Assembly (NCBI RefSeq): GCF_057098645.1
Contig: NZ_CM169472.1
DNA: 64,000 bases
Direction: 5' to 3' (one strand)
Made by a program: the position numbers. Positions 54,803-64,000 of the stretch are shown in pieces. The stretch's first letter is position 1, and each line of letters opens with the position of its first letter.

Positions 54803-57800
54803 TCAGAATTAACTTAACTGTGAATCATGATGTTTTTAGCATCCTGATAAGAGTTAAAAGTTTTAACGCTACGTCGATAGCTGGTCAACGCAACGAAAAA
54901 CAATTCAGATTTTCTTTATAAGAGTAGCTGATATTTATTAAGTTAATATTAAGCAGTGAAATTTAGTCTATAAGATAATTGGCAAAAAAAGCCCGGCACA
55001 ATTTACGCCGGGCCTCAATTTATTGTTAGTTAAGTCAGATTAATCCAGCCATTCGGTATGGAACACACCTTCTTTATCAATGCGCTTATAAGTATGTGCA
55101 CCGAAATAGTCACGCTGTGCCTGGATCAGGTTCGCAGGCAGAACAGCGGAACGGTAGCTGTCATAATAGGCAACCGCAGCGGCGAAGGTCGGAACCGGGA
55201 TACCGTTCTGTACTGCATAAGCAACGACATCGCGCAGCGCCTGCTGATAGTCATCGGCAATTTGCTTGAAGTACGGAGCCAGCAGCAGGTTAGCGATCTG
55301 CGGATTTTCGGCATAGGCATCGGTGATTTTCTGCAGGAACTGCGCACGGATGATGCAGCCAGCACGGAAAATCTTCGCGATTTCGCCGTAGTTCAGATCC
55401 CAGTTGTATTCTTCAGACGCAGCACGCAGCTGAGAGAAGCCCTGAGCGTAAGAAACGATTTTGCCCAGATACAGCGCACGACGAACTTTTTCAATGAACT
55501 CAGCTTTGTAGCCAGCTGGCTGCGCTTGCGGGCCAGAGAGAACTTTAGACGCGGCAACACGCTGATCTTTCAGAGAAGAGATATAACGTGCAAACACAGA
55601 CTCGGTAATCAGCGACAGCGGTTCGCCGAGATCCAGCGCGCTCTGGCTGGTCCATTTACCGGTACCTTTGTTAGCCGCTTCATCCAGAATCACATCAACC
55701 AGGTAGTTACCGTCTTCATCTTTTTTAGTGAAGATATCTTTGGTGATGTCGATCAGGTAGCTGCTCAGTTCACCGTTATTCCACTCGGTAAAGGTCTGTG
55801 CCAGTTCTTCGTTGGTGAGGTTCAGGCCACCTTTAAGCAGAGAATAAGCTTCAGCAATCAGCTGCATATCACCGTATTCAATACCGTTGTGAACCATCTT
55901 CACATAGTGACCCGCGCCATTGGCACCAATATAGGTAACGCATGGCTCACCGTCTTCAGCCACTGCGGCGATTTTGGTCAGGATCGGTGCAACCAGTTCA
56001 TAGGCTTCTTTCTGGCCACCAGGCATAATGGAAGGTCCTTTCAGTGCACCTTCTTCCCCACCGGAAACACCGGTACCAATGAAATTAAAGCCTTCTGCAG
56101 AAAGCTCACGATTACGACGAATAGTGTCCTGGAAGAAGGTATTACCACCGTCAATAATGATGTCACCTTTATCGAGGTATGGCTTGAGGGAATCAATAGC
56201 AGCATCCGTGCCTGCACCTGCTTTAACCATTAACAGGATGCGACGAGGCGTTTCCAGAGATTCAACGAACTCTTTCACCGTATAGTAAGGAACCAGTTTT
56301 TTGCCTGGATTTTCGGCAATCACTTCTTCCGTCTTTTCACGGGAACGGTTGAAAATAGAGACGGTATAACCACGGCTTTCGATGTTAAGCGCAAGATTGC
56401 GCCCCATCACTGCCATACCGACTACGCCAATCTGTTGCTTGGACATTACATACTCCTGTCAGGGGGTGGTCACCGCGCAAGATATGCGCAGCTTGAAATA
56501 TGGTATGGATGTTAACTCAGGTTTAGCTTGAGTAGATAGCAGAAGATGTACTTTAGACAAGCATCACACGAACGATTTTGCAAAAGAAGGGTCAAATGGC
56601 CCCTCTTTAACTTCCACCATAAGAGCACGCGGAGATAGGCATTCGACACTGTGTATATCGCCCGGAGAAAACTCCACAATGCTTATTCCAATATTATCTC
56701 CTGCTATAAATTGCTTTATAACCTCACCATTTCTACCATACAAACAAACCTGAAGTTGCCCCTCCATAACAATGAACATTTCCCACTGATGAGGAAGTTT
56801 GTGATAATGCGGTTCAACATAGCTGCCCTTTACTAATGCAATAAGTAAACGCTGTACCTTTTCTTGATGCGAGCCGTGCATAATAAGGTGGGAACGTAAA
56901 CGTTCCGATTGCTCGGCTTGATCATATAATTTGTCGAGTTGGTCATTATCAATTAATCGCATTGCATGCCTCCAACCTCATTTCTATCGTCTGTGCCGCA
57001 GACTCAACGGAGAATTGTTCTTTCAACAATATATTCGCCCCCGAACCAAGTTGCCGGCGCACATCAATATCATGCAACATTAATAGCGCAGATTGACATA
57101 ATTTATCGTCCTCACCATTGACATGGATTAATCCGGCATTATTTTGATTGACAATGTCGAGCAAATCATTTCCGGCATTTACGCTACCTAAAATAGGTAG
57201 CGACTGAACCATATAGCCTAATAACTTACCAGGAAAATTATGGGAAGAGTGTCTAGCGGAAAGAGAAAACAAGCCGATATCCATTTCCGACAAAATGAAC
57301 TTAAATTCATCCTGATTAACCGAGGGCAAATAGGTGAAATTCGTCAATGCCCACTCAGAGGCTAATGAATTAATTAATTCAACTTCATCACCCTGGCCAA
57401 TAAATAGGAAATGAGCTTGAGGATATGCTGCCATGTTTCTCACAAGTCGCATCAAGTTTGTCATGTCCTGTGCATGACCTATGTTTCCACCATAGAAGAA
57501 AATGGTTTTATCCTCTAGGCCAAGTCGCTTACGTAGTGGTATGTAATCCTTGGGTATGATCGTTGGTGTTAGGGATGCCCAATTACGCAAAACTTCGCAC
57601 GGATAGCCTTTATTATCTTTCCGAAAAACATCAAGATTCTTATCAGACATAAGTCCAATACGATTTGCCTGACGATAAGATATTTTTTCAAAAAGACGAA
57701 AGTAGCGTTCTATTGGGGAACCAGCATTAAGGATTCCTGCATCAATTACCCATTGTGGAAACATATCTCTTAAAATAAGATAAGCAGGACATTGGCAACG

Positions 57801-60800
57801 AGCTTTAATTTTTTTAACTAAATACCCCCAGAATATGGAAGGTGAATAATAAATCACACCCTCAAAGGTCTCTTTTTTTACCCATTTTTTGATGGCTTTC
57901 CACGCCCGATAGGACAAAAGCGTTTCATTGACCACTCGCTGAATTTTACTTACATCCTTGAGCGGCCCGCTTTTAAAACGCCATGTTTTTACCCCCTGAA
58001 AGGTATCAAAAGAAATCTCTTCTTGCATGCCCGTACCAGGAGTAATTACCGTAACATCGTGCCCACGCTGGATAAATTCTTGAGCAAGTTCATGAAACAT
58101 TTTTGCACCAACACGAGTACTGTTGGGCAGGTAATCATCTATGATTAAAGCAAGTTTCATCAATATTCTTTCCAGACAACTCTCTTAACATAATCTGTGT
58201 AAGAGTGAACAATTCTGACAACTTTATCCGACACATTTGGCATGCTGTAATCACTAACCTGACGTAAAAGACGGACTTCACCTCGCGGTTGTGTTGCCAG
58301 AATATCCAGCGCTTGTAATACGCGTTCACACTCTAACCCCACCATCATGACGGATGCTTCCTCAAAGCCTTCCGGACGCTCATGCGCTTCCCGGATGTTT
58401 ACCGCTGGGAAATTCATGATGGATGACTCTTCAGTGATAGTACCGCTATCTGAAAGCACAGCTCGTGAGTTCTTCTGCAAGTGGTTATAATCATGGAAAC
58501 CCAATGGTTTCAGTAGATTTATATTTGAATGAAATTCAATTCCTTGCTCACGGATTCGGTTACGTGTCCTTGGGTGTGTGGAGACAATAACTGGAAGATT
58601 ATATTTTTCAGCAACAGTATTTAGAATGTTCGCAAGCTTTACGAGCTGTTTTGGAGAATCAACATTCTCTTCACGATGCGCACTTACTACAAAAAACTCA
58701 CCAGACTGTAGATTCAAACGCGATAGCACATCTGAACCATCAATTTGGGGCATATAATATGAAAGAACCTCAAACATAGGGCTACCAGTTTTTATAATCC
58801 GATCAGCTGGGATACCTTCAGCCAAGAGATATTCACGAGCAATATCACTGTAGGTCATATTGATATCAGCCGTATGGTCAACAATACGTCTGTTGGTTTC
58901 TTCAGGCACGCGTTGATCGAAACAACGGTTACCTGCTTCCATATGAAATATAGGAACTTTATGGCGTTTGGCCGGAATGGCAGAAATACATGAATTCGTA
59001 TCGCCCAATACCAGTATTGCTTCAGGTTTTTCGATTTCTAATACTTCATCTACCTTAATAATAACTTGGCCAATGGTTTCCGCCGCATTTTTTCCCGCTG
59101 CATTTAAAAAATAATCAGGTTTTCGAACACCCAAGTCATTGAAGAATACTTCATTTAATTCGTAATCATAATTTTGACCAGTATGGACAATAATATGCTC
59201 GCAGTATTCATCAAACTTAGCAAGAACCCTCGACAAACGGATAATCTCAGGACGGGTTCCAACAACAGACATAACTTTTAATTTTTTCATTATAGAGGTC
59301 TCGCAATAGTATCGGGCTCATCACGGTTGAAAATTTCATTTGCCCAGAGCATGACTATTAATTCCTCAGTTCCAATATTTGTAATGTCATGTGTCCAACC
59401 AGGAACTGTTTCAACAATCTTGAACTCATCCGATGAAACATTCAGTTCATATCGCTCACCGGTAATCACATGTTCAAATTTAAAGCATGCCTGACCTCGA
59501 ATGACCAAAAACTTCTCATTTTTACTGTGATGGTAATGTCCGCCACGCGTAATACCAGGGTGAGCAGTAAAAAATGAAAACTGCCCCGCTGAAGGCGTTT
59601 TCAACATCTCACAAAAGACTCCGCGGGCATCCCCATAAAAAGGTACCTTGTACGCAAACTTCTCTGCTGGTAAATAAGTCAGCCATGTAGAATACAATGC
59701 ACGGGTAAATCCCGTCCCGACAGCCTCTGTGATCAGGGTGGAACGGCTATTCTTGAATCTATAAATTAATTCTGCAACTTCACCAACAGTAGTTGAATAA
59801 ATTGGTGCAACAGCTTTATATCCGCTTTCAGTTGCCCCCGAGAGAAGCTCTATCGCTTTAGCACAAACATCATCAATATAAACCAAATTAACTGGCGCAG
59901 ATGCATCATTGATAGTTATGGCAAGATCATTCGCAATATTATAGCAAAAAGTCGCAACAAAAGAATTATAATTTGGTTTGCACCATTTGCCAAAAACGTT
60001 TGGATATCTGAAAATATAATATGGAGAACCACTAGTAGTAGCATATTTTTCAATATAACGTTCAGCTAAAGCTTTGCTTACCCCATAAGCATTGTCAAGT
60101 TCTGCTTGTATAGAAGAACTTAGCATAATTGGTATCTTCTTTCCTATAGAAATAAGATACTCAACTATGTATTTAGTTAAATCACTGTTTCCGGATTTAA
60201 ATTCATCATCAGTCTTTGGTCTATTGACTCCAGCCAAATGATAAATGAAATCAGCGTCCTGTAAGCCTTGTTCAAGATCTTGTTCTGTTGAATCCCGATC
60301 AATTCTAATAAGATTCTTGTAACCTAGTTCCTCAAGCCTCAAACTTAAATTACGGCCAATAAAACCATTTGCACCAGTAATCAATATTTTTATATCATGA
60401 GTCTTAGCCATGTTGTTAACCTGCATGAAGTGCACGAATAAAATCCAATTTGAGCAAAAGCGTTTTCATGCCTTCAACGTTCAACCGTTGTGTATTATGA
60501 GAGTTGTAATCTTCAACCTCGGATATACGACTATCACCTTGTTCAACATATTTTCCATAATTAAGGTCACGAAGATCTGGTGGTATACGATAATAATCCC
60601 CCATATCTTCAGCAGAGAGCATTTCCTCACGACTGAGCAAAGCTTCAAATAACTTCTCACCATGACGCGTACCAATAATATTTACTGGGTGATGAGCAGC
60701 ATTTAGTAAATCCTTTAAAGCAGTTGCTAATGTTTCGATAGTTGCAGCTGGAGCTTTTTGTACAAAAATATCTCCGTTATTACCATGTTCGAATGCATAA

Positions 60801-63800: not shown

Positions 63801-64000
63801 TCCGCCTTTATTTTACTTGCCATTTCAGATAAAGAAACATCTGAAAACAAACCTTTTCTCCATGTCGGCAATATATTGTTTTTATAATTGGCGCAGTAAT
63901 TGCATACTCCGCTATCATCAAAAGTAATATGAGGATCAGATGTATCCATAATACAATGATTACAAATTTGATAATTTTTATTTTCCATACACGCCCTTAT

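Follow-up and report, generated by a model that had tools for sequence, protein, structure and literature searches.

The O antigen carried by Escherichia coli O145, one of the "big six" non-O157 Shiga-toxin-producing serogroups, is the foundation for serotyping and PCR typing and for work on antibodies and vaccines. Its gene cluster reportedly comprises 15 open reading frames (ORFs; Feng et al., 2005). Synthesis of UDP-N-acetyl-L-fucosamine (UDP-L-FucNAc) is established for WbjB/WbjC/WbjD and Cap5E/F/G, orthologues of the FnlA/FnlB/FnlC enzymes. For acetamidino groups, three-protein systems serve as models: in Methanococcus maripaludis, AglX/AglY/AglZ gave the scheme of a glutaminase, a channel and an amidotransferase for the acetamidino group of the flagellin N-glycan, and in the Pseudomonas aeruginosa O5 cluster, WbpG is paired with HisH2/HisF2. 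Among E. coli O antigens, N-acetimidoyl groups are restricted to O118, O145 and O151 (glycan nuclear magnetic resonance review, PMC9912281). The O145 protein WbuX has been described as a WbpG homologue that aminates L-FucNAc (PMC10607449), and the title of King et al. 2008 pairs lfnA with wbuX for L-FucNAm, the acetamidino form of this sugar, gives O145 wbuX as a requirement for expressing L-FucNAm, and calls WbuX membrane-associated. Here, we describe the O-antigen genes at the end of a 64,000-nucleotide (nt) stretch of DNA (NCBI RefSeq assembly GCF_057098645.1, contig NZ_CM169472.1; hereafter, the window) and compare them with these systems. An earlier reading of the window, made without database searches (the sequence-only reading), had proposed that they specify an L-FucNAm-type sugar.

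The last 7437 nt of the window (56564-64000) matched many E. coli O145 genomes at 100% identity, among them those of O145:H28 strains RM12581, RM13514 and RM12761, with the same gene order (wbuX-wbuY-wbuZ-fnlA-fnlB-fnlC-wbuB-wbuC-gnd) and no difference over that length. Eight ORFs without internal stops fill 56564-63988 in the order wbuX to wbuC, followed by gnd, as the sequence-only reading had described; they lie on the minus strand, which it had left unstated. In RM12581, 15 genes stand between galF and gnd, namely those for an acetyltransferase, neuB, a cytidylyltransferase, neuC, O145 wzx, O145 wzy, a hypothetical protein and then these eight. The window end cuts this cluster roughly in half. 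Its last 23 nt (63978-64000, minus strand) are the tail of the hypothetical-protein gene (wbuW-equivalent, WP_001177241.1), placed by coordinate transfer from 10767-12023 of the reference locus, and the neu genes, wzx, wzy and the galF side lie past base 64000, in keeping with the expectation that the cluster continues beyond the window.

Distribution was counted across 5426 complete E. coli genomes, with wbuXYZ searched at blastn sensitivity. The block was present at at least 99% identity in 37 genomes, and O145 wzx/wzy likewise in 37, 36 of these carriers appearing individually among the at-least-99% matches listed. The sequence-only reading had held that the serogroup could not be called from the window; this did not stand, because the matching counts allow O145 to be called by linkage. 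Comparison with reference clusters could have led to a serogroup whose O unit lacks FucNAc or FucNAm, and instead led to O145, a FucNAm serogroup. No evidence contradicting the O145 identification was seen in these comparisons. We consider it almost certain that the window holds the 3' half of the E. coli O145 wzx/wzy-dependent O-antigen cluster, as one co-transcribed minus-strand block making L-FucNAm. From the eight genes, E. coli O145 can be recognised as the source and its surface chemistry predicted, in which the acetamidino group places a positive charge at the cell surface. Publications of 2005-2008 described the O145 cluster, the O-antigen structure and the requirement for wbuX, all of which every reference set contains, and the finding itself therefore adds no new biology; the question that it touches is the enzymology of amidination, that is, the stage of the substrate and what the HisH-like and HisF-like proteins do.

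The amidotransfer system proposed by the sequence-only reading was recovered by curated-family matches above cut-off, with motifs intact. WbuX (62846-63988; 380 amino acids [aa]), an N-acetyl sugar amidotransferase (NASAT) of the WbpG/LfnA/PseA family, matched TIGR03573 ("WbuX") with 280 bits (cut-off, 203.2) over residues 7 to 344, and no Pfam model matched it in a Pfam scan. The NASAT family is defined by the PP-loop SGGXDS and the zinc-binding tetracysteine CXXCXn[GN]XCXXC (PMC10607449). WbuX carries SGGLDS at residues 76-81 and CNHC...GVCNYC (C9-x2-C12...G-V-C29-x2-C32) at residues 9-32; these motifs point to the ATP-dependent activation, with release of AMP and pyrophosphate (PPi), that was proposed from the NASAT structure 8WEX. 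WbpG of P. aeruginosa O5 and LfnA of O12 are likened to WbuX by family and literature, although WbpG acts on another sugar, converting ManNAc3NAcA (a diacetamido mannuronic acid) to its acetamidino form ManNAc3NAmA (PMC10607449).

The second protein, WbuY (62235-62849; 204 aa), is a HisH-like class I glutamine amidotransferase (glutaminase subunit) matching TIGR01855 (HisH) with 213.6 bits (cut-off, 105.4) and PF00117; its start overlaps the wbuX stop by 4 nt. Aligned with the window's housekeeping HisH, it shows 36% identity and keeps the Cys80/His186/Glu188 triad. The third, WbuZ (61439-62230; 263 aa), is a HisF-like TIM-barrel protein that passes NF038364, the AglZ/HisF2 acetamidino-modification family (372.9 bits; cut-off, 310), and its nearest PDB relatives are HisF proteins. 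The architecture is that of AglX/AglY/AglZ, which differs in serving an archaeal N-glycan and a different sugar substrate. In HisF, Asp11 and Asp130 are the catalytic aspartates, and Arg5, Glu46, Lys99 and the GAGE glutamate form the ammonia gate. WbuZ, which shares 33% identity with the HisF encoded in the window, keeps R5, E46, K99, the GAGE Glu and D130, and has Leu at the position of Asp11 in the O145 and O118/O151 copies alike, so that it lacks the aspartate pair of a bona fide HisF cyclase. Since WbuY passes the HisH equivalog and its gene carries the RefSeq name hisH, one might take wbuY/wbuZ for spare histidine-biosynthesis genes (imidazole glycerol phosphate synthase). This is very improbable: the window already has housekeeping hisH and hisF, whose products share only 36% and 33% identity with the pair, WbuZ falls below the hisF equivalog TIGR00735 (192 versus 294.55) while passing the acetamidino-modification family without Asp11, and the wbuYZ pair occurs only together with wbuX, in 48/5426 genomes. 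The name hisH on wbuY is a naming artefact. The concern that the amidotransferase genes might be pseudogenes was also laid to rest, as they have no internal stops and their catalytic motifs are present.

The UDP-L-FucNAc half of the proposal also held, with FnlA, FnlB and FnlC all present, intact and above their equivalog cut-offs. FnlA (60416-61429; 337 aa), the UDP-N-acetylglucosamine (UDP-GlcNAc) 4,6-dehydratase/5-epimerase, matched TIGR04130 (757.1 bits; cut-off, 730), the FnlA-type enzyme of PDB entry 4J2O (E value, 9e-189) and Cap8E/CapE (3e-152). FnlB (59290-60411; 373 aa), a UDP-2-acetamido-2,6-dideoxy-beta-L-arabino-hex-4-ulose reductase of the WbjC/Cap5F type, matched NF047837 (561.4 bits; cut-off, 500) and Cap5F (2ZKL; 2e-102). 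FnlC (58160-59290; 376 aa), the non-hydrolysing UDP-sugar 2-epimerase leading to UDP-L-FucNAc, matched TIGR00236 (wecB-type 2-epimerase; 221.7 bits; cut-off, 210.15) and PF02350. The pathway is that of WbjB/WbjC/WbjD in P. aeruginosa O11 and Cap5/8 E/F/G in Staphylococcus aureus; unlike these, it is coupled in O145 to an amidination system.

WbuB (56949-58160; 403 aa), a glycosyltransferase of family 4 (GT4), was the one product without a curated NCBIfam match, carrying only the generic domains PF13439 and PF00534. The WbuB proteins of O145 and O118 have been assigned the linkage L-FucpNAm-(alpha1->3)-D-GlcpNAc (Liu et al. 2019, PMC7685785, where WbuB belongs to the L-FucNAc(m)-alpha1,3-GlcNAc transferase group HG5), and the putative activity of the WbuB described here follows this literature assignment and its sequence. 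WbuC (56564-56962; 132 aa), a WbuC-family cupin, matched TIGR04366 (141.5 bits; cut-off, 42); it is not specific to amidination, because wbuC is also found in the O15 and O118/O151 clusters, with FucNAc and FucNAm, respectively.

Comparison with these two clusters ties the amidotransfer genes to the acetimidoyl group. The O118/O151 cluster, which makes a FucNAm-containing O antigen, has the same eight genes in the same order before gnd and differs from O145 upstream, with ribitol-phosphate/LicD genes, its own wzx/wzy and no neu genes. The O15 cluster (NCTC86; L-FucNAc) has fnlA directly after wzy and no wbuXYZ, and no N-acetimidoyl group has been reported for O15 (PMC9912281). The genes fnlA-fnlB-fnlC-wbuB-wbuC were present in 178/5426 genomes, 48 of which also had wbuXYZ; these comprised the 37 O145-type genomes and 11 with the closest other version of wbuXYZ, that of O118/O151, at about 84.6% nt identity (one of the 11 was inspected and had O118/O151 wzx/wzy). 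As wbuXYZ is found in O145 and O118/O151 and not in O15, its presence tracks the acetimidoyl group, matching the distribution given in PMC9912281.

The same comparison bears on which sugar is modified. NASAT homologues such as PseA amidinate nonulosonic acids, and the O145 cluster makes N-acetylneuraminic acid (Neu5Ac), so the target might instead be N5 of Neu5Ac, or GlcNAc. We think this most unlikely: the O118/O151 cluster has wbuXYZ beside fnlABC without sialic-acid genes, so that the shared target is FucNAc and not Neu5Ac; FucNAm has been assigned to both O145 and O118 (PMC7685785); and the King et al. title ties wbuX to L-FucNAm. The L-FucNAm-type product named by the sequence-only reading is thus upheld by the 100% identity to O145 and by three agreeing sources (PMC7685785, PMC10607449 and PMC9912281).

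Several points weigh against this picture. The composition given for the O145 O unit (GlcNAc, L-FucNAm and Neu5Ac) comes from reviews. Since wzx and wzy lie outside the window, the O145 call is by linkage and not direct. The match of WbuX to the Legionella protein LpNASAT (8WEX), the only solved NASAT, has an E value of 8.9e-9 and spans only residues 20-99, and WbuZ falls below the cut-off of the older "WbuZ" family TIGR03572 (278 versus 299.7). The roles given to WbuY and WbuZ are predictions from sequence. Finally, the UDP-L-FucNAm pathway was put forward in PMC7685785 as a proposal without experimental basis.

Within these bounds, a pathway can be proposed. FnlA, FnlB and FnlC would convert UDP-GlcNAc to UDP-L-FucNAc, and WbuB would add an L-FucNAc-type residue in alpha1,3 linkage to undecaprenyl diphosphate-linked GlcNAc. 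WbuX, as the PP-loop, zinc-binding enzyme, would convert the 2-acetamido to the 2-acetamidino group, giving L-FucNAm, probably by ATP-dependent activation of the amide carbonyl (releasing AMP and PPi) and subsequent attack by ammonia. WbuY, as the HisH-type glutaminase, would draw the ammonia from glutamine; WbuZ, a HisF-type barrel with the ammonia gate kept and the cyclase Asp11 lost, would most likely activate WbuY and channel ammonia to WbuX, presumably within a complex. The motif pattern of each protein makes this division (glutaminase, conduit without cyclase, amidotransferase) the likeliest one. It parallels the schemes for AglX/AglY/AglZ and for WbpG/HisH2/HisF2, in line with the family name of NF038364. 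The half of the cluster outside the window would supply CMP-Neu5Ac, a putative sialyltransferase, Wzx and Wzy.

Two orders of steps can be weighed for installing the acetamidino group. In the textbook order, WbuX, WbuY and WbuZ convert UDP-L-FucNAc to UDP-L-FucNAm in the cytoplasm, and WbuB then transfers L-FucNAm; in PMC7685785, UDP-L-FucNAm is given as the proposed precursor, with WbuX as the enzyme that makes it, and wbuXYZ lies directly upstream of fnlABC, like an extension of the pathway. Alternatively, WbuB transfers plain L-FucNAc, and membrane-associated WbuX then amidinates the lipid-linked intermediate or the O unit. O145 WbuB is identical to O15 WbuB, from a cluster without wbuXYZ, at 400/403 positions (99.3%) and to O118/O151 WbuB at 398/403 (98.8%). 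No residue separating the FucNAm (O145 and O118) from the FucNAc (O15) type was found among the three proteins, position 113 differing in all of them. This near-identity suggests that WbuB has no adaptation to a charged amidino donor, which speaks against the textbook order and for amidination after transfer, as does the membrane association of WbuX given in the King et al. title. A GT4 enzyme indifferent to the C2 substituent would, however, yield the same pattern, and the family scans (NCBIfam and Pfam) showed no predicted membrane domain in WbuX. An indifferent WbuB and amidination after transfer on a lipid-linked intermediate are roughly evenly matched as explanations of the WbuB data.

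The gene module around wbuB adds to the case for late amidination. From wbuX to the 5' part of fnlB, upstream of about 59800, the block is 84-87% identical at the nt level to the O118/O151 and O15 clusters; downstream of that point, which lies inside fnlB, the 3' part of fnlB with fnlC, wbuB and wbuC is 97-100% identical to both. At the protein level, FnlC is 99.5-99.7% identical to its O118/O151 and O15 counterparts; fnlC, wbuB and wbuC products are 95-99.5% identical between O145 and O118/O151, those of wbuX/Y/Z only 84-91% (84.6% nt), and fnlB-fnlC-wbuB-wbuC products of O15 are 90-99.7% identical to those of O145. The jump in nt identity, from about 86% to 97-100%, implies that the distal module (3' fnlB to wbuC) is a recently shared cassette and suggests a recombination junction inside fnlB near 59800. 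A distal module shared in this way by FucNAc and FucNAm serogroups fits transfer of plain L-FucNAc by WbuB, and we give that order an even chance; the textbook order is somewhat less probable than an even prospect. The more specific version, in which the acetamidino group is installed after WbuB on an undecaprenyl-linked intermediate by membrane-associated WbuX fed by WbuY-WbuZ as a pure glutaminase/channel, falls just short of evens in our estimation. If amidination does follow transfer, wbuXYZ would be a portable "charge-switch" cassette able to turn any FucNAc O antigen cationic.

The junction between fnlA and fnlB (60393-60435) is diverged, and O145 FnlA is 7 aa shorter at its C terminus than O118/O151 FnlA. 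The codon at the RefSeq start of fnlB (60393) is ATA, O145 having a mutation in the ATG that serves in O118/O151 and O15; an in-frame ATG lies six codons upstream at 60411 and is plausibly the O145 start. That fnlB is damaged by the ATA start was considered and rejected, given this upstream ATG and the full-length equivalog match. Longest-ORF calling placed starts too far upstream for wbuY, wbuZ, fnlA, fnlB and wbuB.

Within the eight-gene block, neighbouring genes overlap by up to 14 nt or stand up to 9 nt apart, and the upstream wbuW-equivalent gene overlaps the wbuX start by 11 nt. G+C content is 35-42% in the block and 50-56% in the his/gnd flank. In a promoter and terminator scan of the block, counts of consensus promoter-like sites were below shuffled expectation; terminator-like sites reached about twice expectation, but their stems were short (5-7 bp). 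The low promoter count and short stems give no sign of internal transcription units, and together with the tight junctions and the G+C contrast, they indicate one horizontally acquired O-antigen operon. A gap of 117 nt separates wbuC from gnd (RefSeq gndA; 6-phosphogluconate dehydrogenase; 55040-56446, minus strand; ORF and RefSeq annotation), which marks the conserved downstream limit of the locus, outside the cluster proper; ugd, wzzB and the his operon lie beyond it. The housekeeping hisH/hisF (49717-51802) and their paralogues wbuY/wbuZ (61439-62849) lie within 12 kb on opposite strands, and homologous recombination between the pairs is not expected, as they are too diverged at the protein level.

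The wbuX copy in the window is intact. In two other O145 assemblies, RM9467-C1 (NZ_CP031349.1; 510-1442 of the extracted locus) and CFSAN004176 (NZ_CP014583.1), a 1-nt deletion truncates the wbuX annotation; the affected gene is annotated as a 310-aa "LPS biosynthesis protein" (LPS, lipopolysaccharide) without the N-terminal tetracysteine motif. A similar 1-nt difference hits wbuZ in RM14723. These differences may be real frameshifts or assembly errors.

Collinearity of the whole window with O145:H28 RM12581 was rejected, as only 37957-64000 matches (99.94%). Beside sbcB, RM12581 carries a lambdoid prophage; upstream of sbcB, the window lacks it and has ordinary backbone, and so derives from a different O145 genome. 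Positions 1-37956 carry backbone genes (shiA, amn, yeeN, yeeO, cbl, nac, cobUST, sbmC and dacD) and a degraded CP4-44-like island, and coverage of 14000-38500 did not exceed 96% for any complete genome in the collection. The region 355-4171 consists of an ORF for a VgrG-like type VI secretion spike (355-2508; with Phage_GPD, Gp5 C-terminal and OB domains) and, after it, one of 479 aa (2732-4171) that has no Pfam match and is possibly a cargo effector. A yeeJ-type inverse autotransporter (IAT_beta, with many Big_1/Invasin_D3 repeats) lies in two ORFs (5252-8134 and 9469-14640), split by insertion of an IS3-family element at about 8127-9441, which has an ALIL frameshift pseudoknot (8467-8583) and an integrase-core ORF (8509-9399). 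Three tRNA genes with equal Rfam scores stand around yeeO, cbl and nac (20980-21052, minus; 22800-22872, plus; 25209-25281, plus) and correspond to copies that carry a tRNA-Asn annotation in another genome's matching region. Rfam also gave hits to the enterobacterial small RNA STnc240 (42390-42464, minus), by plaP/yoeI, and to the histidine operon leader (45204-45327, plus).

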